DNA of 64,000 nucleotides from a virus (IMGVR_UViG_3300025671_008697); one strand, 5' to 3'. Positions 34,048-52,916 are shown, counted from the first letter of the stretch. Program-made: numbers and translations. The notes: generated by a model not told the origin, from the letters alone.

Positions 34048-34055
34048 ATATTTTT

Positions 34056-36350
34056 ATGGTACAATCAAATCCAGACATAGAACGAATTATTGAAATGGCT
34101 ACCAACATTGCCCAAAGTAAACATCACGAGTATGTAACTCTAGAGCATATACTACAAGGCATGTTGGCTTATGACCAATTCGCAGATTTCTTAGGCAAAT
34201 TTGGCGTAGATGTTGAAAGTATGCAAAAAGATCTAGATGCATACTTAGATCGCCAAGAGTATTTAGTTAGTAAAGTATATGATGTTGTACCAAAGAAAAC
34301 ACACAGTCTCGAGCGTGTGTTCAATCGTGCATTTACACAGGTTTTATTCAGTGGCAGGCATAACTTGCAAACAATAGATTTGTTTTTAAGTATCATGACA
34401 GAAGATAAAAGTTATGCTACTTACATAATCAACAAGTATGGTTGCGAGCGTAGCAAACTAGTTAGTTTATGGAACAAAACTTTTCAAGAAAAGCATGGCG
34501 GAAAACGCAGTAAAAACCATGCTGACCAGGTGTTAGCGGAATATTGCGACAACTTAAATGTTCTTGTCAATGAAGGTAAAATTGATCCTGTAATTGGTAG
34601 AGAACACGAGATAGACGAAATCAGCCAAGTTTTAGCCAAACGAAACAAGAGCAATATATTGATGGTAGGTGATCCTGGTGTGGGCAAAACTGCTATTGCC
34701 GAAGGACTGGCACATAAAATTGTTAATCAAGAAGTACCTGCTTACCTTAAAGACTTTACTGTATTCAGTTTAGATATTGGTAGTTTGCTGGCAGGCAGTA
34801 AGTATCGTGGTGAGTTTGAAGAAAAAGTCAAAGAGGTAATGAAAGCATTGACTGTAAAAGGCAACTGTATTTTGTTCATCGATGAAGCACACCAGATGCG
34901 TGGCGCAGGCACAGGCAGTAACAGTGGTCCCGACTTTGCCAACATGATTAAACCTGCATTAACTAAACGCAATGTCAAAGTTATTGCCTCAACTACATGG
35001 GAAGAATACACACAGAGTTTTGAAAAAGACCGTGCGCTAATGCGCCGCTTTTATCGTATGACTGTGGAAGAGCCCACACCTGAAGTTGCTAAAGAAATCC
35101 TAGTAGGATTAAAAGAATACTTCGAAGAGTTTCACGGCGGCGAGATCAGTGCAGAAGCCATCGAAGCCGCAGTAGATCTCAGTGTGCGCTACCAAACAGA
35201 CAAACGACTGCCAGACAAAGCCATTGATCTAATTGACACTGCGGCAGCAAAACTTAAAATCTATACCACAGGTTTTGTTGTACGCAAAAGTCACATTATT
35301 GATGCACTCAGTAAGTTTACTAAGATTCCAATTGAGCAGTTAGACACAGAAGCCACTAAGAACCTCGAAACACTGGAAGGTGACATTAAAGAAAAACTCT
35401 ACGGACAGGATCAAGCAGTGGACAACGTGCTTGAAAAGATTTATGTTAGCCGTGCAGGTTTGAAAGCAATCAACAAACCTGTAGGCACGTTTTTGTTCTT
35501 AGGCCCAACTGGTACAGGTAAAACTGAACTGGCAAAACTGCTGGCAGAAAATTTGGGCATGAAACTGTTACGCTATGACATGAGCGAATACCAAGAACGT
35601 CACAGTGTGGCCAAACTGATCGGTGCACCTCCTGGGTATGTTGGCTACGATGATGGCAATCTGGGTGGCGGACTACTAATTAGTGATGTAGAGAAAAATC
35701 CCAACAGTGTTATCTTGTTTGACGAAGTTGAAAAAGCGCACCCTGACGTCAGTAACGTATTGCTGAGTTTGATGGACGAAGGTGTAGTAACCAGCAGCAA
35801 CGGCAAAAAAGCAGACTGTAGGAATACCATTGTTATTATGACCAGTAACTTGGGTGCTGCCGAAAGCGAACGTAATAGTATCGGCTTTGCCAGTTTGTCC
35901 AAAACAGGCGAAGATGACGCCGCAGTTAAAGAATTCTTTAAACCTGAGTTTAGAAATCGTTTAGACGGCATTGTTAAATTTAACAAACTGGCCACAGAAA
36001 CTGTACGCAAGATTGTGGTCAAGTTTGTTGAAGAAATGAACGACTTGCTCAGTGACAAACGTATCTACGTCGAACTAAGCACCAGCGCCATTGATCACAT
36101 TATTGACAAAGGTTACGATGACAAGATGGGTGCTCGTCCGCTAAATAGAAAAATTAACGAACTTATCAAAGTTCCTTTGAGTAAACGTATATTGTTTGAA
36201 AATTTGCAAAATTGTACTGTAAATGTCGAATATTATGATGGGGATTTACAATTTAACATTACCGAAAACACTTACCTGGTATACCCCACAGACAGCACCA
36301 TAGACGAAAATGGCTATATTATCCTGGACAAAATTAAATCCAACTGTTAA
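34056..36350 (+). CDS. clpA: ATP-dependent Clp protease ATP-binding subunit ClpA
   Basis: HEYVTLEH N-domain, GDPGVGKT, LLAGSKYRGEFE, GPTGTGKTE, GAPPGYVG, SIGF ClpP-docking loop, GARP; TAAATA at 34045-34050. Confidence 0.92.
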   Translation: MVQSNPDIERIIEMATNIAQSKHHEYVTLEHILQGMLAYDQFADFLGKFGVDVESMQKDLDAYLDRQEYLVSKVYDVVPKKTHSLERVFNRAFTQVLFSGRHNLQTIDLFLSIMTEDKSYATYIINKYGCERSKLVSLWNKTFQEKHGGKRSKNHADQVLAEYCDNLNVLVNEGKIDPVIGREHEIDEISQVLAKRNKSNILMVGDPGVGKTAIAEGLAHKIVNQEVPAYLKDFTVFSLDIGSLLAGSKYRGEFEEKVKEVMKALTVKGNCILFIDEAHQMRGAGTGSNSGPDFANMIKPALTKRNVKVIASTTWEEYTQSFEKDRALMRRFYRMTVEEPTPEVAKEILVGLKEYFEEFHGGEISAEAIEAAVDLSVRYQTDKRLPDKAIDLIDTAAAKLKIYTTGFVVRKSHIIDALSKFTKIPIEQLDTEATKNLETLEGDIKEKLYGQDQAVDNVLEKIYVSRAGLKAINKPVGTFLFLGPTGTGKTELAKLLAENLGMKLLRYDMSEYQERHSVAKLIGAPPGYVGYDDGNLGGGLLISDVEKNPNSVILFDEVEKAHPDVSNVLLSLMDEGVVTSSNGKKADCRNTIVIMTSNLGAAESERNSIGFASLSKTGEDDAAVKEFFKPEFRNRLDGIVKFNKLATETVRKIVVKFVEEMNDLLSDKRIYVELSTSAIDHIIDKGYDDKMGARPLNRKINELIKVPLSKRILFENLQNCTVNVEYYDGDLQFNITENTYLVYPTDSTIDENGYIILDKIKSNC

Positions 36351-38623: not shown

Positions 38624-38653
38624 CGCTAAATACTATATTAATCTTAGTATAGT

Positions 38654-41005
38654 ATGTATTCGTTTGAACTTTTTGAAGCACCTAAAAATATTGTAGTCTT
38701 ATATGCAGGGCGTTTCCAGCCCTTCCACAAAGGACACAGAGCAGTCTACGAATACCTTGTAAAAAAGTTCGGCCGTGATGCTGTCTACATTAGCACCAGC
38801 AACAAAACTGACAACGATAAAAGTCCTTTTACATTCAGCGACAAAGCATATTTTATGCAGATCCAAGGTATTCCTATGGATCGTGTCAGAGAAACAAATC
38901 AGCCCTATCAAAATCCCGAATTAGTAAAAACATTTGATCCTGAAAACACTGCACTGATTGTGGCAGTTAGCGACAAAGACAAGGATCGCTTTGGCAAGAT
39001 TGGATTTAAGAAAGACGGTAGTTTAAGTTTCTTCCAGGACATACCCAATGAACTTGGAGACATGGCTCCCATTAGCCAGCACGGTTATGTAATGACTGTG
39101 CCCACATTTGATTTCAATGTATATGGTAAACCTATGCGTAGTGCTACAGAAGTACGTGCTATGTATCGAGCAGCCAACGAGCAAGTACGTAAAGAAATAA
39201 TTAAGGATCTATTTGGCAAGTGGACAAAGGAAGCCGAACAGATCATGAATGCCAAACTACAAGAAGACATCATGCCAGCAAGTCAGGGCACTATCAGTCC
39301 TGTTCATGAAAGTTGGAGCAAAAAATACAAGAAAAGTATCGATTGCAGCAACCCCAAAGGCTTTAGTCAAAAGGCGCACTGTGCTGGACGCAAAGCAAGA
39401 CAAGGCGGTAAAAAGACAAAAAGTCAAAGTGTAAGTGAAAACTTAGAAGGACGCATGATTGATCTTACTAAAAACTTTCCTACTTACACAAGTTTAATCG
39501 GTAAAATTACAAAAGAAAATCCCACTAAAGTTACAATCGAAATCGTACAGGCAGATGGTCCAGGCAACGTAAAAGTTGGTGATGAACTACGCATTGCCAC
39601 AAACTATATTAAACGACTGCCTATTACAGAAAGTCATCATACAGACATTCCCGGCATGCTGGAAAAGTTTTTGCCAATTGCAATGAAAGAATTAGGCATT
39701 GCTAAACTACCCAGCATTAAGTTAACCAAGCACCTAAAGCCACACGGCACACAGGCCAGTTTTGGCATGTACAACCCAGACGATGGCAAAATTTATTTGG
39801 CCGTTGCTGATCGTCACCCCGTAGACATTTTACGAACATTGGCACACGAACTGGTACACTTTAGTCAAGACGGCAAACATGAGTTAGATGCAGACAGTGG
39901 TGAAACAGGCAGTGATGAAGAAAACGAAGCCAACTCAGTTGCCGGCGTCATTATGCGTCAGTTCAACAATGAGTTTCCTGATGCAATTAAGAGCGAACCA
40001 CTATTAGCAGAAAACTTATTAAACAAGGCAACACCAACTCCACAAGAAATTATGCAAAAGCATGGCATGACTGATCAAGAGTTTATGCAGCAACTACGTT
40101 TGGGTCGTGCAGTGGAAATGGAACACACAAACAATCCAAAGGTAGCAATTGAAATTGCCTTGGACCACATCAATGAACGCCCAGACTACTACACTATGTT
40201 AAAAAGTGTAGAACGTCCTATGGGCGAAAGTAAAAAAAAAGTAGTTAGCGCAAACTACGGCATTGGCAAAACGCCCGGTGCACTAGCACGAGTAGGACCC
40301 AAAGGTCAAGTACCCCGTGCTCGACTACACGTTAACGTTCCTAAGAAGACTGCTATAAAATTAGGTATACCTCACACACATCTTAAAGAAGCGTTCGACG
40401 CACCTTACCCAATGACTTGGGAACACGGTGACGATAACGAGTCACATGATGCACTGGTTAAACTACCAGACGGTACTAACCTAAGCATTATGTTCAGCAA
40501 GGAGTATGCCGAGCCTGACTACGTAGAAGAAGAATGGCAAGTAGAGTTTTATCGCAACCACAGTCAAGATGTCACAGGCGAAGGTGATGCACAGCGTATA
40601 TTTGCCACAGTATTGAGTGCTATCCAACAGTTTATTAAATTAGAAGAACCAAAGCGTATAAAATTTAGTGCCGCTAAACAAACAGGCGATATGACGCCAA
40701 ATGCCAGCAGAACAAGTTTATATAACAGACTTGTACAACGTTTTGCCAATAATTTAGGGTATGGCGTAAAAACTACAGACCATTCATTGAATACAGTGTA
40801 TGAATTAGAAAAATTGCAAGAAGGCATGGCGGAAAACTTTGCCGACGGTAAGGTAAAAGGCCGAAGTCGCCCAGGGCGTGTAAAAGCAGCAGGCGCAAGT
40901 TGTAAAGGATCAGTCACTGACTTACGTGCTCGAGCAAAAAAGTATAGTGGTGAACGTGGTAAAATGTATCACTGGTGTGCAAACATGAAAGCAGGGAAAA
41001 AATAA
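38654..41005 (+). CDS. Multi-module protein: HIGH nucleotidyltransferase + small Cys module + zincin-like HExxH domain + DUF5661-like + further modules
   Basis: GRFQPFHKGH; DCSNPKGFSQKAHC; RTLAHELVH; EMEHT...IALDHINERPDYY; terminal NFADG...HWCANMK; TAAATA at 38627-38632. Confidence 0.8.
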   Translation: MYSFELFEAPKNIVVLYAGRFQPFHKGHRAVYEYLVKKFGRDAVYISTSNKTDNDKSPFTFSDKAYFMQIQGIPMDRVRETNQPYQNPELVKTFDPENTALIVAVSDKDKDRFGKIGFKKDGSLSFFQDIPNELGDMAPISQHGYVMTVPTFDFNVYGKPMRSATEVRAMYRAANEQVRKEIIKDLFGKWTKEAEQIMNAKLQEDIMPASQGTISPVHESWSKKYKKSIDCSNPKGFSQKAHCAGRKARQGGKKTKSQSVSENLEGRMIDLTKNFPTYTSLIGKITKENPTKVTIEIVQADGPGNVKVGDELRIATNYIKRLPITESHHTDIPGMLEKFLPIAMKELGIAKLPSIKLTKHLKPHGTQASFGMYNPDDGKIYLAVADRHPVDILRTLAHELVHFSQDGKHELDADSGETGSDEENEANSVAGVIMRQFNNEFPDAIKSEPLLAENLLNKATPTPQEIMQKHGMTDQEFMQQLRLGRAVEMEHTNNPKVAIEIALDHINERPDYYTMLKSVERPMGESKKKVVSANYGIGKTPGALARVGPKGQVPRARLHVNVPKKTAIKLGIPHTHLKEAFDAPYPMTWEHGDDNESHDALVKLPDGTNLSIMFSKEYAEPDYVEEEWQVEFYRNHSQDVTGEGDAQRIFATVLSAIQQFIKLEEPKRIKFSAAKQTGDMTPNASRTSLYNRLVQRFANNLGYGVKTTDHSLNTVYELEKLQEGMAENFADGKVKGRSRPGRVKAAGASCKGSVTDLRARAKKYSGERGKMYHWCANMKAGKK

Positions 41006-41178
41006 TGGCAATAAGTGTATTAAAAACTTGGTGGGGAGTCACTAAAGGCTTCTTTACGGGCGGCCCAATAGGTGCAGTTATCGGCGGCAATGAAAGTGAG
41101 GCCGAGCAAGTAGCTGCCGATGAAATGCCATCCATTGAAGAATCTATTCGTAAAGACGAAGAAGATAAGGCAAACTAA
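40984..41178 (+). CDS. Small protein with glycine-zipper-like segment
   Basis: GFFTGGPIGAVIGG and acidic tail; likely ATG 40984. Confidence 0.55.
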   Translation, partial: HESREKIMAISVLKTWWGVTKGFFTGGPIGAVIGGNESEAEQVAADEMPSIEESIRKDEEDKAN

Positions 41179-41217
41179 AAAAGACATAACAGCCAACGAA
41201 GAAAAGGTAAATTTGTA

Positions 41218-41832
41218 ATGAAAAATCTATTATTAATTGTATTAGCATCAATTGCATTGTCAGGTTGTAGCACAACAAAAACTCAAGAGTCAGAACTTAC
41301 ACTGTGCAAAGGCAAGTTTGCCTTGTGTGCTGCCAGTACCTGTAAACCCACTGGTCGTACAATGACCACCAATAACGGTGTAACTTATCCTGAAATGGCC
41401 TGTACCTGTCCTGTGTTGGACGGCTACAGTATTGCCGATTTAACTGCTGGTGTTATGCAAGGTACTTGTGCAGTAGATGATCCCAGCACACAGGTTTGGA
41501 GTCTGTTTGCGCCACGCATATTTTACCCACAAGAAGCCAGTGACTTTGTACAAACACCCAAGTCTGCTACTAAAGCCACTGTGCAGAGTTGCCCAGGTGA
41601 ACTGGCACCAGAATCTGTAAATTGTTTTGGCATGATGTGTACCTATGACAAAGACCCTGTTAACGGCACACAAACTGCTACCTGCACCTGCCCTAGCAGA
41701 CAGATTGAAAAAGGCACAGAGTTCTTAATTGAGGCAGGACAAGGTGACCCCAGTTACTGCGCCCGGCACCCAGTAAGTGCTCCTGATCCATTTGCACAGG
41801 GCTATCCCGATGTGTGGTTAACGAGGAAGTAA
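41218..41832 (+). CDS. Cys-rich lipoprotein
   Basis: Lipobox ALSGC and about a dozen further Cys. Confidence 0.75.
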   Translation: MKNLLLIVLASIALSGCSTTKTQESELTLCKGKFALCAASTCKPTGRTMTTNNGVTYPEMACTCPVLDGYSIADLTAGVMQGTCAVDDPSTQVWSLFAPRIFYPQEASDFVQTPKSATKATVQSCPGELAPESVNCFGMMCTYDKDPVNGTQTATCTCPSRQIEKGTEFLIEAGQGDPSYCARHPVSAPDPFAQGYPDVWLTRK

Positions 41833-41833
41833 T

Positions 41834-42037
41834 GTGAAACTGTACGAACTGTTTGATACTGTATCCGAGCAACTGACCTACAAGGGTTATGCTTGCCGCA
41901 TCGACTGTTCGGGGCACATTGCAGGCTACGAGTGGGCACGACAGCACAATATTACAGATCCAGACGCATGTCCATATCGCCCCAGCCATCCCAGTTTTTA
42001 TGAAGGCTGCAGAAGTTACGCTGAAGGCAGAACATGA
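41834..42037 (+). CDS. Small Cys-containing protein
   Basis: MKLYELFD...CRIDCSGHIAGYEWA...SFYEGC. Confidence 0.7.
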   Translation: MKLYELFDTVSEQLTYKGYACRIDCSGHIAGYEWARQHNITDPDACPYRPSHPSFYEGCRSYAEGRT

Positions 42038-42312
42038 AGCAAATTGAAATTAAATTAGATGTTTACGGAGCATGGAAAGACGTTGCACCAGCATACAGAA
42101 TTTATATAGACGATGAGATGATATGTGAGCGTGGTTTTTATGCTATGGAATATGAATTCTGTCAGGAAAAAATATTAGTGGAATTACCTGCAGGAACAAG
42201 TCACCTAATTAAATTTGAACCTCTCCCCACAATTCGAGGAAACACTTTAAGTTATAAAAACCTTAGAATGAATGGAATAATGATAGAACCTGGGTTCACT
42301 GTTCCAAACTAA
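42034..42312 (+). CDS. Hypothetical protein
   Basis: ORF track; beta-rich. Confidence 0.65.
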   Translation: MKQIEIKLDVYGAWKDVAPAYRIYIDDEMICERGFYAMEYEFCQEKILVELPAGTSHLIKFEPLPTIRGNTLSYKNLRMNGIMIEPGFTVPN

Positions 42313-42336
42313 ATATAGCATAAGGACCTTTTTGAC

Positions 42337-42636
42337 ATGAAAACCCAAGAATTTTTAAAAGAAGACATTGTTACAGATGCCGCAGAAATGCATACCGATC
42401 ACGAAGTACAAATGGCACGCAGTCAGTGTTATCATGCTGCCGAAGATGCTATCGCACTACACAAACTACTACGTCATATTTCAGAAGCACAGGGCATTGA
42501 AGGCTGGGTCGCTGCAAAAATCACACTGGCAGCAGACTACTTGAACAAAGTTCGTGAGTATTTAGAATATGATTTAATGAGCGCACAAGAGCCTGGCGAA
42601 GAAATGCCTGTGGCAGAAGATGAAGACAAGCAATGA
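42337..42636 (+). CDS. Putative internal head protein
   Basis: MKTQEFLKE N-terminus; DHEVQMARSQ...WVAAKITLAADYL; TAAATA at 42310-42315. Confidence 0.7.
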   Translation: MKTQEFLKEDIVTDAAEMHTDHEVQMARSQCYHAAEDAIALHKLLRHISEAQGIEGWVAAKITLAADYLNKVREYLEYDLMSAQEPGEEMPVAEDEDKQ

Positions 42637-42851
42637 AAATTAGGGATATTATCAGTGAAGAAGCCAGTGCAGGCGCAACCGCAGCAGGCAACATTGCCAC
42701 TGTGAATAATCCTAACATTGCAAGACAGAAAATTAAAAGAGATCGTAACGGTATACCCAAAGCACCACAGGCACTAAACCCTAACGGCACTGCAAAAAAT
42801 GCCTTAGACATAGATGCAAACATTACTGGCGGCCCAATGTTTAAGAGATAA
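42633..42851 (+). CDS. Putative internal head protein
   Basis: MKIRDIISEEASAGATAAGNIA. Confidence 0.65.
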   Translation: MKIRDIISEEASAGATAAGNIATVNNPNIARQKIKRDRNGIPKAPQALNPNGTAKNALDIDANITGGPMFKR

Positions 42852-42853
42852 TA

Positions 42854-45397
42854 ATGGATATTAAGAAGTTTTTAGAAACAGTTGACAAGTTCGACTTTGC
42901 AGGTGAAAAACAAGGACAACAACCTGGCCAACAATGGCAGGGCACAGACAAAGGTCTGCCTGGTACTAAACTTGTGGGCGAAGAACTTGATTCCAATGTT
43001 GTTCTTATTCAAGATCCTAAAGGCCAATACTTAGACAAACTAGATATAAATGTGGCTGCAAAAAAATATAATTTTAATGCCAATGATATAAAACAACAGT
43101 TACAGCATCAAGACTTTACTCAAATTGGAAATATAAGAGTAATAAAGCCAATAGCAGCAGAAAATGTCATTAAAGAATTAGAAGACTATGTAAAAGAAAC
43201 TTCTACAGAGCGTAAACTTAAACGTGACTTTGATAACTTTGACAGTGAAGATTGGGCAGATTGGGACGCCAAAATTAAAAGACTGAAACAACTTGCCAAA
43301 CAAGGCGAACTGGTTACTGTATGGGACAAAGAGAAACGTGTTTATAAAAATGTTCCTAAAAGCGAAATAAAAGAATACCAAAATAGAATGGATCCTGATG
43401 CGCAGGTAACTAGCCCTCCCAGTCCAGATGCTAGTCAAACTGCTATAGATCAGATTAAAGATAAAATTTTTGCACGTGATGTAGAAGGTGAAACTGTTGA
43501 AGAACAAACGCCTACAACTACTCCCCCAGCACCTGGTGCTCAACAATTTAAATTTACACCGGACCAAGAAAAATGGTTAGGTGGTGCTAATCGTCAAGAT
43601 CCCGATATCCTAAAAAGAATGCCTGGGCCAAAACCCGGCGTAGATTATTTTAAAGGTCAAGACGATCAAGCAAGAGCAAAAACATTAAACATCGGTAGAC
43701 AAAACTTAAACACCGTTAAAGGTGTAGTTGGTGCACAAAAAGATGCTCCTGAAGTGTTTCCTACAAGGCCAGCGGCTGCACCTGCAGTGGCGGTGCCAAA
43801 ACCACAGGCTGCTGCACCTGCACCTACAAGACCTGTAGTAGTAGACGAACCTAGAAAGACTGCGTTAGATCCTAATGCATACAAAAAAGTACCACAACAA
43901 ACAATAAAAGTAGATGCACCAGCAGCAACAACTGCTCCAGCAGCTGCAGTACAACAAGCTGATAGGCCAGCAAGAACAACATGGCGGAGTTTGGCAAAAC
44001 TAAATCCACAAATTAAAAATCCAGATAGAATATATCCAGGTCAGGAAATTACATTACCCGATGGTTCTAAAGCAGTTGTCGACAAAGGTGATACACTAAG
44101 CGGTATTGCACAACGTTATAGACAAGGTGGCTATGCAGATAGTACACCAGTAAAAACAGCGCCTGCAACTGCTACTTCCACACCAGTTAAACCTCAGCCT
44201 GATCTAAAAGGAACTGAATTACCTAAAGTAAGCGGTAAGGCTGCTAGTCAACTACAAAAAGGTAGAGAATACCGTGCTCGCCAGGCAGCAAAACAAGATA
44301 ACACAAACCTAGGTGGCAATGCTGCTGACCCAGAAGCACAGGCTTTTGCAAAACCAGATACACCCAAAGCAGAACCAGGTGTAACTGCTACTGCAAATCT
44401 AGGTGTATCACAAGGCGGAATAGCTGCTGCTTTTGGTGATTTAAAGAAACGTGACGATGGCAATTGGTACTTTCCAGGCGGTGTAAAAGTAACTAATCCA
44501 AAAACTATTGCTGCGGCAAACAAGGCTGCGGTGCAAACTAGTACTAGACCAACTGCAATCGCAAGTAACAATGCACGACAAGAACCAACTAGATCAACCG
44601 CAAAGAATTTTAAACCAATGCCTAGTTACATTTTAAATCAGATACCAGGTGTTGAGAGTAACAACAATCCCAAGGCTGTAGGTGCAGCAGGAGAAACTGG
44701 TGCATGGCAAACTATAGCCGGCACTTTAAAAGACCCAGGTTACGGTGTTGAACCTGCACGAGATAACAGTCCTGAAGAGTTAGCAAGAGTGGGTAAAGAT
44801 TATGCTAATGCTATGTACAATAAGTACAGAGATCCTGAAAAAGCATTGGCTGCATATAATGCCGGACCTGGTGCAGTAGATAAAGCAATTCGTGCAGCAT
44901 CAATGAGACCTGGTTCAGATTGGAAAGATTTCATTCCAAAATCTACCAGAGAGCAATATTTGACAAAATACAACTTACAGCCGCCGACAAGATTAGCAGC
45001 AAAAGGCGGCGCTACTGTTGAATCGCTAATGTCAGACTATCGCAAGTTTGTTGCAGAATACGGCAATCAACAGGCGCCTGACCAACAGGCTACTAGCCAA
45101 GACAGTGCAGAAAGTGATGCAGAAGCAGAACTAAAACGTCAGCGCATGGACCGACGTGTCAGTCAAGCAACACTGGCTGGTTTAAGCGCAGTGCTACCTC
45201 CAGGCACAAACACCGCAGTGGCAGCAACTGCATTAAATAAAATTGTTGATCAGAAGCCACTGAGTCCACAGGAAAACCAAGTTATAGGCACACTGATGCC
45301 GTTGTTGGCTAGAGCAGCAGAAGAACCTAGTACTAGTAGCAGTCTAAAAACCGCATTGGGACGTGCAGGTATGTTAACAAAATTAGGAAAGCAGTGA
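42854..45397 (+). CDS. Modular protein with LysM and soluble lytic transglycosylase (SLT) domains
   Basis: SLAKLNPQIKNPDRIYPGQEITLP / VDKGDTLSGIA (LysM); VESNNNPKAVG..GAWQ...ALAAYNAGPG (SLT); Pro/Ala linkers. Confidence 0.8.
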   Translation: MDIKKFLETVDKFDFAGEKQGQQPGQQWQGTDKGLPGTKLVGEELDSNVVLIQDPKGQYLDKLDINVAAKKYNFNANDIKQQLQHQDFTQIGNIRVIKPIAAENVIKELEDYVKETSTERKLKRDFDNFDSEDWADWDAKIKRLKQLAKQGELVTVWDKEKRVYKNVPKSEIKEYQNRMDPDAQVTSPPSPDASQTAIDQIKDKIFARDVEGETVEEQTPTTTPPAPGAQQFKFTPDQEKWLGGANRQDPDILKRMPGPKPGVDYFKGQDDQARAKTLNIGRQNLNTVKGVVGAQKDAPEVFPTRPAAAPAVAVPKPQAAAPAPTRPVVVDEPRKTALDPNAYKKVPQQTIKVDAPAATTAPAAAVQQADRPARTTWRSLAKLNPQIKNPDRIYPGQEITLPDGSKAVVDKGDTLSGIAQRYRQGGYADSTPVKTAPATATSTPVKPQPDLKGTELPKVSGKAASQLQKGREYRARQAAKQDNTNLGGNAADPEAQAFAKPDTPKAEPGVTATANLGVSQGGIAAAFGDLKKRDDGNWYFPGGVKVTNPKTIAAANKAAVQTSTRPTAIASNNARQEPTRSTAKNFKPMPSYILNQIPGVESNNNPKAVGAAGETGAWQTIAGTLKDPGYGVEPARDNSPEELARVGKDYANAMYNKYRDPEKALAAYNAGPGAVDKAIRAASMRPGSDWKDFIPKSTREQYLTKYNLQPPTRLAAKGGATVESLMSDYRKFVAEYGNQQAPDQQATSQDSAESDAEAELKRQRMDRRVSQATLAGLSAVLPPGTNTAVAATALNKIVDQKPLSPQENQVIGTLMPLLARAAEEPSTSSSLKTALGRAGMLTKLGKQ

Positions 45398-45398
45398 T

Positions 45399-47732
45399 AT
45401 GTTAACCGGAGATCTATTTCAACCGCTAACAGAAAAAAAGAAAAAGCCCAAGCCCACCAAGCCAGAGAAATGGGCCTATGCTAAATCTGAAGCAAAGAAA
45501 AAGTTTGATGTATATCCCAGTGCCTACGCTAATGCATGGGCTGCTAAAAAGTACAAAGAACTGGGTGGCGGTTGGCGCATGGGCGAAGACATCGACGAAG
45601 CAGATCAACAAAGTGATGCACCCAGCAAAACCTACGGCAATCAAAAACTAGTTAACATAATGCGTAAGGCTGCTGAAGTTCCTGGCACTGGCCTATCCAA
45701 TGACCAACGTATGTTTGTGGCCATGTACGATGAACTAGAAGATGCAGTAGAAAAAATTGGTGATGTAGAAAAACAAAATCAAGAACTACGCCAACAAGTT
45801 GCCAAACAGGCACAACCTGCGGCTAAAGCAGCAGCGCCAGCAAAAGAACCTACAGCAGCACAGGTCAAAGCACAGCCCGCAGCAGAACCTGCAGTACAAC
45901 AAGTTGTGCAAAATATTACACAAGTTCTACAACGTGCAGAGCAGAGTGCTGAAACACCAGAACAACAAAAAGAACTGGCTGCTGCCAAAGAAAGAATTGC
46001 AGACTTAGAAGACAAAATGAGTCAACTCAGCAATGCTGACGTAAAAGAGATTGAACGTACATTTGTTGAGATTGAAAAAGGCGGCATCAAAATGGGTGAC
46101 GTCAAACGTTTGTTGCGTGTAGTAGACAAGCGTATTGACCAAAGCGCAAAAGAAAAACAAGCGGCAGAAAAACCAATTACAGTAGATCAACCAGAACCAG
46201 AAAAACCAATTACAGTAGATCAACCTAAGCCAGGAGAAATTTCCACAAACACAATAATAGATTTTATGAAGAAAACCGATGACACACTCGATGATATTAA
46301 AGCAACTGATCAGGAACAAAATAAAGTTATAAAAGTGGTTCCCGACAACACAGACAAATTAAATGCAATTATTGCTTCTTCCCCAACATTACGAGCAAAG
46401 TATCCAGATGTCCAACCACAACCTATACAACCATCACCAGACAACAAAGTAGTTCAATTTCGCCCACGCACCGCACAACCTCCTGCACAACCTCCTGCAC
46501 AACCTCCTGCACAACCTCCTAAACAACGCATAGCCGTAGTTCCAAACCCAAATGATGAACTACTAACAGGAACAAACAATGAAAGTATCAATGAACAACA
46601 ACAAGAAACATTTGATTTTAGATTGCCTGCAGCAAGAGTTATTGGCGTATTAGATGATTTCTTTGCAACAAAATGGGATGGTGCTTTTAAGTATTTTGAA
46701 AAAACTTTCCATGACGAAGATAACGAAGAAGAGGAAGATCCATGGGGAGAAGGTCTTACTCAACTGGACAATGCATTTTTAGTTCCTGCAACCATTGTTA
46801 GAAAACTTGGTACATTAACAAACGCTTTTATTGACTTAGAAGACTATCACACCCAAATTTATAATCATCCAGAATACAATGCTATGTTTGGTCATGTTAT
46901 GTTTCCTGCATTTAAAGGAAAAATTTACAACAAACCTGTTAAAGCAAGTGAAACTAAAATGGGCTTCGATGATGATTTACAATTTTTTGAATACTATTTT
47001 AATGCACTTACAAATGCTGTTAAAACAAAAATTCATCCCTTCATGAAACAAGTAAAAGAGTTTGTCGAAACTCAATACGCTGAAAATAAAGATGACAATC
47101 ATGCTATGATGCAGTATTTTGTACGGAATGTATGGAATCCGTACATGAATGAAATTAATAAACTACATGCAGCAAGAGAAAAATTAAAGCCTGTTGTTTT
47201 TAACATGAGGCAAATCTTAAGAACAAAACCTCAAGGTGAACTATTTGAGCGCAAGAAGAAAAAGAAAAAGTCCAAGAGCAAGAAAGCATTCGGTGGTTAC
47301 TACTTCCCAGGCTATCACTACTATGGACAGGGCACTGCCGAGATCAGCGACGGCGGTGGTGACGGTGGTGGCGAAAGCATGTTTGAAGTTGTCACAAAGA
47401 ATCGTTCACCAGAAGAAACAGGTTCATTAGACAGTTACTACGGTCGTCGCAGACAGCCACACAAAGTTGTAGATGGCAAACGTGTCGAACTCACAGACCG
47501 AGAAGAAATCCAGCAATATTTGGATGCCTACGAAAACCAAACAGACCGCAAGGACTACGGTGATTTAGATGAAACACGTTTGTATTTCCGCACTGTGGCC
47601 ACACTGGCAGAAAGTCTTGAACAGGACTTTGGCATGCAACAAGACGACAAAGGTTGGTATCTAACAGCACGCAGCGGACGTCAACGTATCCTAGACGCAG
47701 AGCGTGCATTTGGTGAACCAAGGATCCTCTAA
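45399..47732 (+). CDS. Modular low-complexity protein with DUF5872-like N-terminal module
   Basis: KFDVYPSAYANAWAAKKYKELGGGWR; coiled coil; GGYYFPGY..GGDGGG segment. Confidence 0.7.
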   Translation: MLTGDLFQPLTEKKKKPKPTKPEKWAYAKSEAKKKFDVYPSAYANAWAAKKYKELGGGWRMGEDIDEADQQSDAPSKTYGNQKLVNIMRKAAEVPGTGLSNDQRMFVAMYDELEDAVEKIGDVEKQNQELRQQVAKQAQPAAKAAAPAKEPTAAQVKAQPAAEPAVQQVVQNITQVLQRAEQSAETPEQQKELAAAKERIADLEDKMSQLSNADVKEIERTFVEIEKGGIKMGDVKRLLRVVDKRIDQSAKEKQAAEKPITVDQPEPEKPITVDQPKPGEISTNTIIDFMKKTDDTLDDIKATDQEQNKVIKVVPDNTDKLNAIIASSPTLRAKYPDVQPQPIQPSPDNKVVQFRPRTAQPPAQPPAQPPAQPPKQRIAVVPNPNDELLTGTNNESINEQQQETFDFRLPAARVIGVLDDFFATKWDGAFKYFEKTFHDEDNEEEEDPWGEGLTQLDNAFLVPATIVRKLGTLTNAFIDLEDYHTQIYNHPEYNAMFGHVMFPAFKGKIYNKPVKASETKMGFDDDLQFFEYYFNALTNAVKTKIHPFMKQVKEFVETQYAENKDDNHAMMQYFVRNVWNPYMNEINKLHAAREKLKPVVFNMRQILRTKPQGELFERKKKKKKSKSKKAFGGYYFPGYHYYGQGTAEISDGGGDGGGESMFEVVTKNRSPEETGSLDSYYGRRRQPHKVVDGKRVELTDREEIQQYLDAYENQTDRKDYGDLDETRLYFRTVATLAESLEQDFGMQQDDKGWYLTARSGRQRILDAERAFGEPRIL
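46165..46225 (+). repeat. Two copies of a 28-bp direct repeat (33-bp period) within the CDS
   Basis: CAGAAAAACCAATTACAGTAGATCAACC x2, encoding EKPITVDQP. Confidence 0.9.
46473..46520 (+). repeat. 12-bp tandem repeat x4 (AQPP linker)
   Basis: GCACAACCTCCT x4. Confidence 0.95.
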
Positions 47733-48358
47733 TGCGTAGAGATCCAACAGAACTGTTCAAACCTGAAGACAGCGAACTTCGCAGAATTAAGAACAAGTAC
47801 GTTCCTGAGTGGAGCATGTTGGATTATACTGTGCTAGAATGTGCATGGGAGTTTGTAGACGCACAGACTGCGATGCGTTTTGCCTATGAAATGTACAGAC
47901 TGGGCGAAGACATGGATCACAACGCTGTGGTTAAAATAGATCATAACAGTGTTGAAGTACAGATTAGAACCGGCGACGTTGACGGATTAACTATATTAGA
48001 TTTTGAATTTGCACTTAAAGCAACTGCTGTTGCAGAACAGTTAAAGGGCGACAGACTCAGCAAAGTCAAAAACGAACTGGGCGAAGCCTATCAGGGTGGA
48101 CTACGCAAGTGGTTTAAAGAAAAATGGGTCAACATTGCCAAGAAGAAAAAAGGCGGCGGCTACGAAGAATGCGGCAGCAGTGGTGACAAAAAAGGCTATG
48201 CCAAATGCGTACCAGCTGCAAAAGCTGCTGGTATGTCATCTAGTGAAAAGAAAAGTGCAGTACAACGTAAACGTAGCGCACAACGTAAAGCAGGCAGACC
48301 CGGCAAGAAAAGTGGCGCTAAAGGCAAGGCTCCAATAAGGGTAAGTACAAAGAAATGA
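47732..48358 (+). CDS. Two-module protein: pterin-4a-carbinolamine dehydratase-like domain plus basic GLRKWFKEKW module
   Basis: EDMDHNA...GLTILDFEFA (PCD-like); GLRKWFKEKWVNI...CG...KCVP. Confidence 0.6.
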   Translation: MRRDPTELFKPEDSELRRIKNKYVPEWSMLDYTVLECAWEFVDAQTAMRFAYEMYRLGEDMDHNAVVKIDHNSVEVQIRTGDVDGLTILDFEFALKATAVAEQLKGDRLSKVKNELGEAYQGGLRKWFKEKWVNIAKKKKGGGYEECGSSGDKKGYAKCVPAAKAAGMSSSEKKSAVQRKRSAQRKAGRPGKKSGAKGKAPIRVSTKK

Positions 48359-49791
48359 AAATCGTTGAACTAAAATGCTGGCCTGGCTATGAGCGTGTAC
48401 CTGGAACCAAAGCAGGTGCTGTAGGTAGTTGCCGCAAAACGAGTTCTAAAAACGAAGATGCTGCTAACCCAGCCAATCTTGGCCTAACTATATTTGACAT
48501 AGACGACACACTAATGCATACTACTGCAAAGATACGTGTTGTCAAAGACGGCAAAACCGTACGTGAATTAACCAATCAGGAGTTTAATAACTACAAACTA
48601 GAACCAGGCGAACAGTTTGACTTTGGTGAGTTTCGTAGTGCAGAAAAGTTTGCCAAGGAAAGTGAACCCATACGCCCTATGATTGCTAAACTAAAAGCAA
48701 TCATGAAAAACGCAGGAAACAGCAAAGTTATAATGCTGACTGCAAGAGCAGACTTTGATGACAGAGATACTTTCCTAGACACTTTCCGCAAGTACGGTAT
48801 AGACATTGACAACATCCATGTGCACCGCGCAGGCAATATTCCAGGACCAGAAACTCCAGCGCTGAAAAAAGCAGTTTGGGTACGCAGATATTTAGACACT
48901 GGCATGTACAACAGAGTCAGACTGTACGATGATTCAATGAGCAATCTGCGTGCATTCAAAGATTTAAAAGATGAATATCCTGCAGTAGACTTTAAGGCCT
49001 ATTACGTAGGTCCCAGCGGCAGTAGCACTGTTGTAGAAGTAGACCTTAAAGGCAAGTTAGCAACAGGTGCTGTGGCAGGCGCACTGGCTGTGGGTCAGGG
49101 TGGCGCACTTGTTAACAAACTCACAGACCCCGACAGTCCTCGCTATCAGGTTCCTAAAGATGCAGCCACATACCAAATGAAGGAACCACCACGTGAACTG
49201 CCCAAGTCACTGCCTGCTGCACAGCCTAAACAACAGACTGCACCTCAGGTCCGAGCAGAACCAAAGGCAGTTAATTTGACTGGCAGTCCTTACGAAACAC
49301 TGATGCGTAAAGTAGCACAAGCCAGTGGCATACAGGGCACAGAACTGGCAGCGTTTATGGCACAGATGGCGCACGAAAGTATGGACTTTACTCGCATGTA
49401 CGAAAAGGGTATCAAACGTTACTTTAATCGCTATGATCCCAGATACAATCCAGGCACTGCTAAAATATTAGGCAACACTCGTGCAGGCGATGGCTACAAG
49501 TACAGAGGCAGAGGTTTTATACAGTTAACTGGGCGTGACAACTATACCCGTGCAGGCAGAGACCTAGGTATTGACTTAGCGAACAAACCAGACTTAGCAG
49601 CTGATCCTAAAATAGCAGCACAAATTGCAGTATGGTTTTGGAAAAACAGAGTGCAACCAAAGGTAGATGACTTCAGCAACGTAAATGATGTAACACGCAG
49701 TATCAATCCCAACATGCGTGGTCTGAAAGATCGTGCAGAAAACTTCAAACAGTATCAGGTTGCTATGGCAGACACTGGAGCAGATTCATGA
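48355..49791 (+). CDS. Modular protein: CWPGY module + HAD-like phosphatase + GH19 lysozyme
   Basis: CWPGYERVPG..GSC; IFDIDDTL, MLTAR, LYDD; AFMAQMAHES, YRGRGFIQLTGRDNY. Confidence 0.85.
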   Translation: MKIVELKCWPGYERVPGTKAGAVGSCRKTSSKNEDAANPANLGLTIFDIDDTLMHTTAKIRVVKDGKTVRELTNQEFNNYKLEPGEQFDFGEFRSAEKFAKESEPIRPMIAKLKAIMKNAGNSKVIMLTARADFDDRDTFLDTFRKYGIDIDNIHVHRAGNIPGPETPALKKAVWVRRYLDTGMYNRVRLYDDSMSNLRAFKDLKDEYPAVDFKAYYVGPSGSSTVVEVDLKGKLATGAVAGALAVGQGGALVNKLTDPDSPRYQVPKDAATYQMKEPPRELPKSLPAAQPKQQTAPQVRAEPKAVNLTGSPYETLMRKVAQASGIQGTELAAFMAQMAHESMDFTRMYEKGIKRYFNRYDPRYNPGTAKILGNTRAGDGYKYRGRGFIQLTGRDNYTRAGRDLGIDLANKPDLAADPKIAAQIAVWFWKNRVQPKVDDFSNVNDVTRSINPNMRGLKDRAENFKQYQVAMADTGADS

Positions 49792-50267
49792 GATTATTTC
49801 AGTTTGAAGCAGAACTGCCACCAGAAGCAATTGAAAAACTTCAACAGTATAAACAGCAACGTCAGCCAACTTATGCAGAACTTAGACGTAAGGCTCTGCA
49901 GGTTGAAGAGTTAGCAGGCATGGCCAAAAAGATTGAAGACCTGCGTGCCAGAGTAGAACGTGTATACGGTGATTTACCTCCAGGCATGCAGGCAGATTTG
50001 GAACTAGCAGATTTATATCCTGTGCCAGAAACAGATCAGGACTATGTTGATCTGAAACAAAGATTTGTAAAAGACATAGCACTACTACAAAATTATGTAC
50101 AGAGCAAACGCAGTCTCTACAAAAGAGAAAGCGTGAACTACAATGGCGCTTTTTGGTTATCACAGGTACAGGGCAGCGATAGTCCTGTTAGCCCAGTTGG
50201 TGCAGTTCCAAAAGCACAACGCATAAATACTAAAAAGGCGCCAATTAATGTTAAGAAATCTGATTAG
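49788..50267 (+). CDS. Hypothetical protein
   Basis: MRLFQFEAE...; C-terminal SPVSPVG. Confidence 0.65.
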   Translation: MRLFQFEAELPPEAIEKLQQYKQQRQPTYAELRRKALQVEELAGMAKKIEDLRARVERVYGDLPPGMQADLELADLYPVPETDQDYVDLKQRFVKDIALLQNYVQSKRSLYKRESVNYNGAFWLSQVQGSDSPVSPVGAVPKAQRINTKKAPINVKKSD

Positions 50268-50679
50268 ACTGGTAGAAGCAGCAGAGCGTAACTGCCCTGT
50301 GGCAACCTACGACATTGACGTCAACCTTAAAAATCGACAGACAGCAATTGACAGTTATCATTACGGTCCTGCTAATCCAGCAGCGCCAGGAAAATATTGG
50401 AAAGATAGTGCCAAGCAGTGGAAGATAGACGAAAAAACTGCAAAGACAATGCTGTGTGCTAACTGTGGTGCATTTGATGTCAGCGACAGTATGCGTGACT
50501 GCATTGCCAATGGTATTAAGGGTGACGAAAAGGCTGTAGATGCAAACGCCAGTATTAACTTAGCAGACTTAGGATACTGTAACTTCTTGCATTTTAAATG
50601 CGCCGGGGATAGAAGTTGCACTGCTTGGATAGCAAATGGCCCCATAACAGAAAAAGACAAAGGCAAGAAGGCAGACTAG
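50248..50679 (+). CDS. Cys-rich conserved phage protein
   Basis: MLRNLIRLVEA; CANC, GYC..LHFKCAGDRSCTAW; TAAATA at 50224-50229. Confidence 0.7.
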   Translation: MLRNLIRLVEAAERNCPVATYDIDVNLKNRQTAIDSYHYGPANPAAPGKYWKDSAKQWKIDEKTAKTMLCANCGAFDVSDSMRDCIANGIKGDEKAVDANASINLADLGYCNFLHFKCAGDRSCTAWIANGPITEKDKGKKAD

Positions 50680-50680
50680 C

Positions 50681-51115
50681 ATGGAAGATTTAATCAAAGC
50701 AATGAAAATTGCATTTAGCACAGAGTTTAGTTTTTATTTAAAAGCACACAATTTTCATTGGAACGTAGAAGGTCCAGATTTTCAAGAGTATCACAAACTG
50801 TTTGAAACTATTTACGAAGAAGTCTACGAAAGCATTGATCCATTTGCTGAAAACATTCGCAAACTGGGCAGTTACACTCCTGGTAGTTACACACGCCTTA
50901 GTATGCTAACACAGATCGACGACGAAACTGGCGTACCACCAGTAATGGGTATGGTAGAAGAACTGTTAAGTGACAGTGATAAGTCCGTCAAAGTATTCAA
51001 GATGGTTTACGACCTAGCAGAACGTGAAGGTGAACACGGTTTGAGTAACTTCCTTGCTGAACGTATGGATGCACATCGTAAACACAGTTGGATGTTAAGA
51101 GCAAGTCTCAAGTAA
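50681..51115 (+). CDS. dps: Dps/ferritin-like DNA-protecting protein
   Basis: FYLKAHNFHWNVEGPDFQEYHKLFE.IYE...D.FAENIRKLG...HRKHSWML. Confidence 0.9.
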   Translation: MEDLIKAMKIAFSTEFSFYLKAHNFHWNVEGPDFQEYHKLFETIYEEVYESIDPFAENIRKLGSYTPGSYTRLSMLTQIDDETGVPPVMGMVEELLSDSDKSVKVFKMVYDLAEREGEHGLSNFLAERMDAHRKHSWMLRASLK

Positions 51116-51117
51116 GA

Positions 51118-51699
51118 ATGCAAACAAAAGACTTTTATGAAGCCAGTCCCAGTACACTAGGCGGGAGTTTTACACCTGACTTAGTAACAAGCAAATTATG
51201 GCTAGCACGTAAGGTGCGTGCTTTAATGACTAAAACTCGTGTCGAAAAATACAAAACAGTATATGTACTGGGCAGTTGGTTTGGTAATATGGCTATATTT
51301 TTGCAGCAAAAAGGTGTTGAATTTGATCGAATAGTGTTAGTAGACATTAACAAAGATTGGATGCAAATTAGCAAAGAACTATTAGAACCAATTACAGACA
51401 AACTAGATACCATAATTCAGGACGCAAACAAAATTACCTATTCTGACCAGCAGCCAATATTAGTAATTAATACCAGTTGTAATGAAATGGCAAATGAGGG
51501 TTGGTTAGACCGTATTCCTGCGGGATCAACGGTTGCTCTGCAGGCTAGAAATAATGTACAATCAGTGGACGTAGTAACAGACACCGTAGAAGAATTTAAT
51601 AATCAATTTCCGTTGAGTGATGTGTTTTACTTGGGCGAGCGTAAACTACGAGATCCGGAAGTTAGTTATCAAAGGTTTATGAAAATAGGAATCAAATAA
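51118..51699 (+). CDS. Class I SAM-dependent methyltransferase-like protein
   Basis: [28 protein letters not shown]; likely ATG 51118. Confidence 0.65.
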
Positions 51700-52907: not shown

Positions 52908-52916
52908 GTATTTACA

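Follow-up and report, generated by a model that had tools for sequence, protein, structure and literature searches.

Described systems for packaged phage proteins

The capsid-targeting sequence (CTS) of phage T4 is MKTYQEFIAE (PMC8442874). Its residues 4 and 7 serve targeting and residues 8 and 10 processing, the protease gp21 cleaves after L/I-X-E, and an Asp at position 10 blocks processing and leaves targeting unaffected (PMC9026906). IPI, IPII, IPIII and Alt share a core sequence in an N-terminal propeptide roughly 10 residues long and an L/I-x-E cut site, and diverse, fast-evolving cargo stands behind this conserved tag; the cargo is made up of small individual proteins and one enzyme, Alt, each receiving one or two cuts at its termini. 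The jumbo phages phiKZ, 201phi2-1 and SPN3US package dozens of head-internal proteins that a gp21-related S80 protease cuts after Glu, with several sites per substrate (PMC9026906, PMC5694885). Their motif, however, is S/A-x-E, their propeptides often exceed 100 residues, their substrates are paralogous families rather than shuffled strings of unrelated modules, and they form a different phage group, without T4-type Gp23 or Portal_T4. T7 gp16, a head-internal protein with a lytic transglycosylase, is a parallel to the candidate SLT-bearing cargo described below. Another is P1 DdrB, which is processed, packaged and delivered at infection and has a predicted zincin-like metallopeptidase domain (cited in PMC5512222). 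T7 gp16 and P1 Dar/DdrB nevertheless depend on other targeting mechanisms, and no L/I-x-E seams or module strings are known in them. Finally, Iyer, Burroughs, Anand, de Souza and Aravind (2017) described packaged multi-enzyme "polyvalent proteins", large and composed of many unrelated domains including zincins, lysozyme-type enzymes and small DUFs, which are predicted to be packaged, processed into effector units and delivered with the DNA; there an embedded zincin (MPTase) is the cutter, and neither a targeting propeptide nor a uniform seam motif is described (PMC5512222).

We analysed a 64,000-nucleotide stretch of viral DNA (IMGVR_UViG_3300025671_008697; the window), in which a first-pass annotation had interpreted the block at 38654-51699 as polyproteins that are packaged, cut inside the head and injected. 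In our assessment the block probably encodes the head-internal cargo of an uncultured T4-related jumbo phage, packaged, cut at its seams by the prohead protease and delivered with the DNA; the best reading is that T4-type capsid-targeting propeptides and prohead-protease sites would here be extended to modular "polyvalent" proteins. The earlier interpretation stands in its T4-like leaders and in the shuffling of modules at hydrophobic-x-Glu, but it overstated the share of ORFs with a leader, named a methyltransferase that the block lacks and took in genes that are not cargo.

The core of the T4 propeptide (E-F-I-A-E) has close counterparts here (E-F-L-K-E, D-I-I-S-E and E-L-F-E), the same L/I-x-E cut site is predicted, and a portal, a protease and a capsid protein of T4 type occur in the clade. 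In contrast to T4 cargo, the proteins are 500-850 aa long (up to 1600 aa in relatives), string together 4-9 unrelated modules, each seam bearing a site, and are predicted to include several enzymes. The 2-15 unrelated domains typical of polyvalent proteins are matched by about 8 modules in ORF 38654 (ORFs are named by their first position), at least 4 each in 42854 and 45399, and 3 in 48355, whereas the domain repertoire is mostly different and no LPD, ART or MPTase-PolyVal family was found in the block at the Pfam threshold. We found no paper describing leader-tagged, seam-cut module strings.

T4-like leader peptides

All 11 leaders listed in the first-pass annotation are present in window ORFs; ORF 41834 has a GTG start codon, and the ATG of ORF 51118 is internal to a frame starting with TTG. 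The T4 CTS is matched by MKTQEFLKE, MKIRDIISEE, MYSFELFE and MDIKKFLE, and seven of the 11 ORFs have a propeptide of about 10 residues that is hydrophobic at the targeting positions. To score leaders we used a position-specific model (PSSM) trained on relatives alone, with a threshold of p<0.03. This was reached by 11 of the 86 window ORFs scored, against 2.6 expected, and seven of these lie in the block (38654, 42337, 42633, 42854, 45399, 50248 and 51118); leaders are enriched in the window, with a concentration in the block. When 2203 ORFs from the window and relatives are pooled, 156 matches to the leader pattern are counted, versus 47.6 ± 6.8 in shuffles within the N-termini; orthologues are among the 156, which are therefore not independent of one another. 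Across the genome of the closest relative, the enrichment is modest (21 versus 12 expected at p<0.03).

The claim that most ORFs of the block carry such a leader is too generous: it is credible in about 7-9 of 16 block ORFs. By score, seven of the 11 listed leaders fall into a genuine N-terminal class and the other four are weak. These four belong to 41834 (Asp at P1), 47732 (KPE), 49788 and 48355, the last of which (MKIVE) draws its support from a single relative, which reads MKYRELLE/ACWSGY (a slash marks the junction). A Glu within about 12 residues, by which the leaders had been recognized, is uninformative; in the genome of the closest relative, a loose [LIFM]xE near the N-terminus shows no enrichment (12.9% versus 11-12%). 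Propeptides end with the gp21 site L/I-x-E at LFE8, LKE9, ISE9, LTE12, LVE10 and IVE5, P3 is Phe in FLE8 and FYE8, and the site is departed from in 41834 (Asp at P1) and 47732 (Lys at P3). In sets of 20 and 18 orthologues, leaders are conserved at the amino-acid level, with a hydrophobic P3, a free P2 and Glu at P1, and the P3 residue is encoded by many different codons.

Module junctions at hydrophobic-x-Glu

The x-x-E sites listed earlier all exist in the block proteins, but the listing by itself proves nothing, because the number of [LI]xE in these proteins is at chance (28 versus 26.6 ± 4.7). The signal resides only in the positions of [LI]-x-E, at the module boundaries. Each large ORF strings together independent modules, among them an NMNAT-like transferase, a zincin-like module, an HAD phosphatase, SLT/LysM, GH19 and numerous small peptides rich in Lys, Arg and Cys, with hydrophobic-x-Glu at every seam. 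Module shuffling among related phages, which the first-pass annotation had proposed as a check, is indeed found, with breakpoints exactly after hydrophobic-x-Glu: the same modules stand either right after an 8-9 residue leader, as in MKINEFMFE/EWSQKY, MFINEVITE/AFDQPY and MRAREFVTE/NFADG, or internally, right after hydrophobic-x-Glu. For three modules, hydrophobic-x-E falls exactly at P3-P1 in 9/9, 6/6 and 6/6 distinct, unrelated upstream contexts, one case for each being immediately after a 9-aa leader; the cultured, T4-like Vibrio phage nt-1 has the junction NLTE/AFDKP. Of 133 contexts of the Lys-rich mini-domain of ORF 45399 world-wide, 118 have hydrophobic-x-E at a constant distance ahead of it (24.5 ± 4.3 expected), with P3 being L in 69, I in 21, F in 16 and V in 12, and the poly-Lys/Gly-Tyr module of the same ORF is transposed between homologues (P0001 and P0057), flanked on either side by hydrophobic-x-E. 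Junction codons vary among phages, and selection therefore acts on the protein. Against the packaging reading, leaderless module strings are found elsewhere, in cyanophage S-SRM01 (starting MGWSEKYKK) and in P0130 (starting MANPALNKK).

These could be multidomain proteins that are never cleaved, in which hydrophobic-x-Glu is a structural cap or linker convention easing shuffling, and the N-termini are similar by descent or through start constraints, with no targeting involved. Cleavage is a prediction, the chance-level site total fits this explanation, and start regions rich in A and T favour codons for Lys, Ile, Phe and Glu. However, at least six unrelated modules are preceded by the same P3/P1 pattern, which is thus not one fold's cap, the free variation of seam codons speaks against a signal carried in the DNA, the leaders agree at every functional position with the T4 CTS as defined by experiment, and the leader signal is lost when residues are shuffled within the N-termini; we regard uncleaved proteins as unlikely, though deserving of some weight.

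Module strings of the block

All block ORFs for which coordinates are given lie on the plus strand. ORF 38654 (38654..41005), a 783-aa string with Pfam and PHROG matches, comprises the leader MYSFELFE (residues 1-8), an NMNAT-like nucleotidyltransferase (9-219), a K/R/C-rich peptide (220-262), a small beta domain (263-326), a zincin-like HExxH module (327-453), DUF5661 (454-525), a spacer (526-579), a DUF6934-like module (580-727) and a second K/R/C-rich peptide (728-783), with predicted cuts after E8, E219, E262, E326, E453, E525, E579 and E727. Eighteen orthologues, 201-868 aa long, keep its leader. According to the AF2 model, five of the predicted cuts lie between domains, in segments modelled with low confidence, of which three are short (9-12 residues); some sites (MLE337 and MKE346) sit within confidently folded domains and would need protection if the seams are cut. 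The module at residues 9-219 has the HxGH-type motif GRFQPFHKGH, matches Pfam CTP_transf_like above the cut-off (3.9e-6) and has 2qjt and 1f9a as its nearest solved chains (E 1e-4), which identifies it as a predicted NMN/NaMN adenylyltransferase-like nucleotidyltransferase.

The zincin-like module has a conserved HExxH and GxxGSxxENxAN, with alignment invariants H73, E74, H77 and E98/N99 corresponding to protein residues 399, 400, 403, 424 and 425, and an AF2 pLDDT of 83. Its best Foldseek matches are mini-zincins and are weak (E at least 0.013, TM 0.45-0.56), its weak family and fold matches are all zincins (DUF6782, Tox-MPTase3, M91, M78, abylysin, selecase, Wss1, SPRTN and lethal factor), and MPTase-PolyVal matches two of 18 homologues at E 0.007, below the cut-off. 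Since the published model gives processing to such a domain (PMC5512222), the strings could be polyvalent proteins as Iyer et al. (2017) described them, packaged but cut by this module, either in cis or, on neighbouring strings, in trans. Yet the zincin is found in just one of the four large block strings and no zincin match reached the family threshold in the comparison with family profiles, while the seam, L/I-x-E, is the motif that gp21 is documented to cut and agrees as well with the site predicted in the capsid protein of the closest relative, where LAE/N lies just ahead of the conserved core. Zincins, moreover, usually select on P1' and not on a P1 Glu, and cutting by this module seems to us improbable. 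Strings with zincin, HAD and other domains share the same hydrophobic-x-Glu seam, from which we infer that one protease would cut them all, in keeping with processing by the prohead protease.

ORF 42854 (42854..45397, 847 aa), behind the leader MDIKKFLE, has LysM at residues 375-402 (Pfam 9e-10), an SLT lytic transglycosylase at 589-685 (3e-14), Pro/Ala/Thr-rich linkers and a conserved C-terminal module; its modules are dispersed across different ORFs in relatives. The 777-aa string of ORF 45399 (45399..47732) begins with the leader MLTGDLFQPLTE and continues with the widespread Lys-rich mini-domain (residues 13-72), through which nearly all of its 1581 matching representative clusters are found, a long helical middle, the poly-Lys/Gly-Tyr module (618-663) between LFE/ and MFE/, and a C-terminal module after LDE725. 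In ORF 48355 (48355..49791, 478 aa; phrog_415 1.5e-6, phrog_181 3e-41), the short leader MKIVE is followed by a CWxGY Cys module (6-43), an HAD/PNK-phosphatase-like domain (44-228) ending in VVE228, a linker and a GH19 muramidase (about 300-478; Pfam 1e-14); the HAD module has its own leader in one relative (L005), and the CWxGY module follows MKYRELLE in another (L007). The domains named in the first-pass annotation are present as an NMNAT-like nucleotidyltransferase, a zincin-like module, an HAD/PNK-like phosphatase, SLT with LysM, and GH19, but there is no methyltransferase inside 38654-51699, the nearest being at 55627.

Smaller genes and genomic context

The leader of the 99-aa product of ORF 42337 (42337..42636), MKTQEFLKE, comes nearest of all to the T4 CTS, and its 20 orthologues, in ORFs of 99 to 1140 aa, keep MKxx(D/E)F(L/I/V)xE. 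ORF 42633 (42633..42851) encodes a 72-aa basic protein (leader MKIRDIISEE, PSSM p = 0.0025) whose site region aligns to the place where maturation cleavage is predicted in the major capsid protein of the relative G001 (59% identity over 22 aa, N-terminal region). ORF 47732 (47732..48358, 208 aa) has Pfam matches to a Pterin-4a/DCoH-like domain (residues 17-97) and, after ELGE118, to a basic DUF5872 module, behind its weak leader. The 143-aa protein of ORF 50248 (50248..50679) has the leader MLRNLIRLVE (p = 0.024), and hydrophobic-x-E precedes its conserved Cys-Pro module in 3/3 contexts; the 193-aa protein of ORF 51118 (51118..51699; MQTKDFYE, p = 0.023) has no relatives in the comparison set. 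The same holds for ORF 49788 (49788..50267, 159 aa), which also has no family match and whose supposed leader MRLFQFEAE is unsupported, with a low PSSM score, and for the 67-aa ORF 41834 (41834..42037), whose leader-like MKLYELFD (p = 0.04) has Asp at P1; by the T4 precedent, its product might be targeted but uncut. Not every block gene is cargo: exceptions are a 204-aa predicted lipoprotein (41218..41832) with a signal peptide, the lipobox LSGC, the N-terminus MKNLLLIVLASIALSGCS and no family match in Pfam or PHROG, and a leaderless Dps/ferritin-like protein (50681..51115; Pfam Ferritin 5e-22, phrog_3636), whose gene is the block end in the window, G001 and L108. A conserved 92-aa ORF without a leader is also within the block.

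Upstream of the block, in a conserved context, lies a gene for a ClpA-like AAA+ protein (34056..36350, plus strand; phrog_4871, E 4e-244), preceded by a DnaJ-like gene (33214-34047); a review of jumbo phages suggests that phage ClpA/ClpX may move unfolded proteins or assist virion assembly (PMC7824862). Relatives of the ClpA-like protein occur on 264 viral contigs, and the cargo block follows in the best 80 of the 264. In a check for late promoters, TATAAATA was found once in the window, on the opposite strand. No close match was found among 50,697 phage records. A T4-type Peptidase_S77 scoring over the Pfam cut-off is encoded by every one of the three near-complete relatives, whose lengths are 338-374 kb, and in the closest relative it is accompanied by a T4-type portal (Portal_T4) and major capsid protein (Gp23). 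In the window's clade the block adjoins clpA/dnaJ, not head genes; in another lineage (L104-L106) such a block, whose products include a CTP_transf_like protein of 769 aa and a mini-domain protein of 916 aa, is directly upstream of terminase and Portal_T4, and the L104 and L105 loci extend to Peptidase_S77, while L106 stops within the portal gene. The clpA and dnaJ genes directly upstream in the window and fetched relatives, and the translocation or assembly role suggested for phage Clp proteins, would suit cytoplasmic polyproteins or tagged substrates of the adjacent unfoldase and DnaJ, with the leader as a chaperone/unfoldase tag and products acting in the infected cell, but we consider this very improbable, as the L104-L106 blocks stand by head genes with no Clp-family gene among those listed for these loci, the leader and seam motif equals the gp21 site, we know of no ClpA/ClpS degron resembling the leader, and a role of ClpA in cargo loading would be compatible with packaging into the head rather than a rival to it.

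Proposed route of the cargo

Under packaging and cutting by the prohead protease, each cargo protein would begin, by analogy with T4 IPI-III and Alt, with a T4-type propeptide of 8-12 residues and the core (D/E)-(F/L/I)-(L/I/V/F)-x-E, which would dock it on the prohead scaffolding core. A gp21-type serine protease (Peptidase_S77) would remove the propeptide, cutting after hydrophobic-x-Glu, and, to judge by the seams, the same protease would split the strings into single proteins within the head. The cleaved pieces, separate enzymes and small basic proteins, would remain with the DNA and exit alongside it at infection. Because the seam is uniform, modules would be swappable between genes and between phages, with targeting and release retained.

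Phage and relatives

The window is a piece of an uncultured jumbo phage genome, with a ClpA-like AAA+ protein (34056-36350), a DnaJ-like protein, a GH19 endolysin, a spanin, and tail-fibre-like genes among its jumbo-phage features. No near relative of the window was found among 50,697 deposited phage genomes, and DNA and protein searches of cultured phages gave none either, the last search having probably been hampered by low-complexity masking. A ClpA query returned 264 viral contigs with relatives, 80 of which were fetched; the relatives include three near-complete genomes of 338-374 kb. In the metagenome collection, 41 blocks contain identical copies of the window's ClpA sequence, so the phage is abundant in aquatic samples. 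The DnaJ-like and ClpA-like genes (33214-36350) lie directly upstream of the block of module-string genes at 38654-51699 in the window, in the closest near-complete relative (G001), and in metagenome contigs with identical ClpA, and the order of ClpA followed by the cargo block is repeated in the 80 fetched loci; a part for ClpA and DnaJ in cargo loading or unfolding is conceivable. The genes beyond 51699 are metabolic (auxiliary metabolic genes): an isocitrate lyase (Pfam ICL, 5e-103), a PaaA/BoxB-like di-iron protein, and a class II aldolase follow one another at 51699-54982, and the closest relative lacks all three.

N-terminal leaders

The T4 capsid-targeting sequence (CTS), MKTYQEFIAE (PMC8442874), loads foreign proteins on its own (PMC8442874; PMC3012670); its residues 4 and 7 serve targeting and residues 8 and 10 processing, whereas an Asp at position 10 prevents cutting but leaves targeting intact (PMC9026906). 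The first-pass annotation quoted 11 CTS-like leaders in the block, and all were found in the window sequence. Its criterion of a Glu within 12 residues is uninformative, as most proteins would be expected to satisfy it, and counts of a loose [LIFM]xE near the N-terminus were dropped as evidence, being without genome-wide enrichment in the closest relative (12.9% vs 11-12%). A position-specific model built from relatives alone places 11 of the 86 window ORFs at p<0.03, where 2.6 would be expected. Among these 11 are seven of the listed block ORFs (38654, 42337, 42633, 42854, 45399, 50248, and 51118); ORFs 47732, 49788, and 41834 have weak leaders, and ORF 48355 has a very short one. The pattern of the leader was counted 156 times, orthologues included, in 2203 ORFs of the window and relatives, compared with 47.6 ± 6.8 when residues were shuffled inside each N-terminus, and a strict version is found in 2.4% of N-termini vs 0.11% of internal Met windows. 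On these counts, a specific leader class is real. By the same criteria, the lipoprotein at 41218, the 92-aa ORF at 42034, and the Dps-like ferritin at 50681 are not predicted to be cargo. A Dps/ferritin-like gene without a leader stands at the block end in three separate lineages (window, 50681-51115; G001, 300853-301287; locus L108, 4763-5206).

Among 20 distinct orthologues of ORF 42337 the N-terminus is MKxx(D/E)F(L/I/V)xE, and among 18 of ORF 38654 it is M(F/Y)xx(E/D)(L/I/M)(F/Y/A/L)E. Orthologues use seven different hydrophobic codons at P3, the third residue before the predicted cut, with P2 free and P1 either GAA or GAG, so the constraint is at the protein level. The proteins behind these leaders range from 99 to 1140 aa (42337) and from 201 to 868 aa (38654), so one N-terminal module is joined to differing downstream modules.

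Seams at module junctions

T4 gp21, the prohead protease, cleaves after L/I-X-E (PMC9026906), and Alt is cleaved at ITE-6 and LTE-619 (PMC5694885). The x-x-E sites listed for the block are present in the sequence, but [LI]-x-E sites in block proteins number 28, at chance level (26.6 ± 4.7 expected), and there is no depletion of [LI]xE inside domains of cargo proteins; the total count was therefore dropped as evidence. An all-against-all breakpoint test over all ORFs gave a diluted signal (176 vs 141 ± 10). Because this test was contaminated by start-codon miscalls and by unrelated genes with variable N-termini, we adopted module-anchored tests, in which a module is anchored at its first conserved residues and the distinct upstream contexts are gathered.

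Homology blocks of the large ORFs are spread among differing ORFs and positions in relatives, and hydrophobic-x-E falls exactly before the anchored modules. [LIVMF]-x-E occupies P3-P1 in 9/9 contexts of the K/R/C-rich WSxKYKxS module, 6/6 of the AFDxPY module, and 6/6 of the NFADGK module, with one example of each standing directly behind a 9-residue leader (MKINEFMFE/EWSQKY, MFINEVITE/AFDQPY, and MRAREFVTE/NFADG; slashes mark predicted cuts). In two relatives the zincin-like module stands behind a leader (MKSSEIIRE/ or MRAVEFLVE/), and elsewhere it is preceded by ITE/ or similar. An internal NLTE/AFDKP is found in ORF252 of the cultured T4-like Vibrio phage nt-1, and in cyanophage S-SRM01 the small Lys/Arg/Cys-rich modules reappear as a single 609-aa string located behind the small terminase subunit. 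The adjacent hypothetical ORFs 252-255 of nt-1 (record 151654-154813) have the leader-like starts MTIIFE, MIEFLTE, and MFSFNEYE. Because seam codons vary among phages, a fixed recombination signal in the DNA does not account for the seam here, and the idea of a recombination linker at the DNA level is unsupported in this case.

ORF 45399 gave 1581 matches at E<0.001 among 1.84 billion representative proteins, nearly all through its Lys-rich mini-domain (residues 13-72); the mini-domain alone accounts for more than 1500 representative protein clusters. The best 150 of these matches comprise 133 distinct upstream contexts, in 118 of which [LIVMF]-x-E lies exactly 10 or 13 residues before a conserved Trp (24.5 ± 4.3 at random positions). 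P3 in these 118 is Leu in 69, Ile in 21, Phe in 16, and Val in 12; within the best 150, the mini-domain stands behind short leaders in 32 copies and is internal or C-terminal in 115. A poly-Lys/Gly-Tyr module at residues 618-663 (window 47250-47387) is flanked by LFE/ and MFE/; in two homologues it lies at 116-165 between VEE/ and VNE/ (P0001, 795 aa) and at about 43-90 between VIE/ and MAE/ (P0057). This mobile module runs from a poly-Lys stretch through GGY(Y/F)FPGYxYYG to an acidic Gly-rich tail (GGGDGGGGES), always with hydrophobic-x-Glu at its bounds in the three proteins. The C-terminal module of ORF 45399 begins after LDE, MSE, LLE, or IKE in four proteins.

The position of the predicted seams at module starts is the strongest result of our analysis. 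That the module strings are not cut at all would fit the chance-level totals; set beside the placement of the seams, we consider it unlikely.

Modules and structure

An AlphaFold2 (AF2) model of a 391-residue piece of ORF 38654 (residues 200-590) has confident blocks at 228-252, 263-319, 329-447, and 460-485 and low-confidence linkers at 200-227, 253-262, 320-328, 448-459, and 486-551. Predicted cuts at E219, E262, E326, E453, and E525 are within the linkers; two other sites, E337 and E346, are inside the folded zincin-like module. Further cuts in ORF 38654 are predicted at E579 and E727. Modules of the block include a nucleotidyltransferase (nearest to NadM and archaeal NMNAT), a zincin-like HExxH module that fits no established family, DUF5661, DUF6934-like and DUF5872 modules with matches below the Pfam cut-off, Pterin-4a-like and HAD/PNK-phosphatase-like domains, LysM with SLT, GH19, and several small Lys/Arg/Cys-rich modules; the methyltransferase also claimed for the block is not inside it. 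A 2017 study (PMC5512222) predicted that multi-domain "polyvalent proteins" are packaged and that a zincin embedded in them does the processing, and our literature search found no paper tying prohead-protease seams or a CTS to polyvalent-type proteins. Cutting by the zincin would suit its presence in ORF 38654; with seams that follow the gp21 rule, we think it improbable.

Protease, head genes, and promoters

Each of the three near-complete relatives has a match above the Pfam cut-off to Peptidase_S77, the family of T4 gp21; the clade's gene lies at L094:12279-12914 (minus strand). The closest relative has Portal_T4 (6e-97) and Gp23 (1e-98) arranged in T4 gene order, and in its capsid protein LAE/N immediately precedes the core aligning with T4 gp23. 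The leader and first residues of the 72-aa ORF 42633 align with that capsid maturation-site region (59% over 22 residues), a motif with no further occurrence in the 2203 ORFs examined; ORF 42633 (42633-42851) reads RDIISEE/ASAGATAAGNIATVN and the capsid protein (L094:9957-11138, minus strand) RKHLAE/NATAGATSAGNVATLN, the capsid site being predicted. From this likeness, ORF 42633 may mimic the N-terminal arm of the capsid protein. Contigs L104-L106, from another lineage, have a block with a 769-aa CTP_transf_like protein (MGKLIKEWVKEILTE/) and a mini-domain protein of 916 aa immediately upstream of the terminase and Portal_T4 genes; L104 and L105 extend to Peptidase_S77, and L106 stops within the portal gene.

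No perfect match to the T4 late promoter, TATAAATA, was found ahead of the block, and sigma-70 and terminator scans were at chance level. A T4-late-like box, (C/T)ATAAATA or CTAAATA, lies upstream of 38654 and 42337 orthologues (L032, L029, L033, L012, L014, and L017). In several relatives only 7-8 nt separate it from the ATG, compared with about 20 nt in the window (38625-38633). Genes with this box have no Shine-Dalgarno sequence, which points to late transcripts that are nearly leaderless. A TATAAT-like box lies 4-8 nt ahead of the ATG in many other genes of the window.

Interpretation

The best reading, and a fairly probable one, is that T4-type capsid targeting, along with processing by the prohead protease, has been extended to strings of shuffled modules; under it, we infer that the block proteins are packaged, cleaved, and injected and that their timing is late. 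A cytoplasmic role linked to ClpA would draw on the neighboring gene and, given the leaders and seams, is very improbable. Beyond T4-type targeting and processing of these strings, we hold evenly balanced the proposal that many T4-related phages, a set widespread in the environment, would use the prohead as a general chamber for loading and processing, where a short address tag and a universal seam would make any module "plug-and-play" cargo, one gene would yield many injected enzymes and DNA-binding peptides, and modules would be exchanged at seams between genes and phages.

If true, dsDNA phages would have a polyprotein strategy whose scale has no described precedent in the literature searched. 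A rule as simple as an address tag plus L/I-x-E seams would predict from sequence which proteins are virion cargo and where the mature proteins begin and end, and extra natural tags and seams would be available for trial in the T4 protein-packaging system. T4-type capsid targeting would no longer be an oddity confined to three small T-even proteins but a general and evolvable means by which abundant aquatic giant phages deliver pre-made enzymes, with NAD-related, RNA-end-repair-like, cell-wall-cutting, and protease activities, and would explain how counter-defence activities are fielded ahead of any gene expression.
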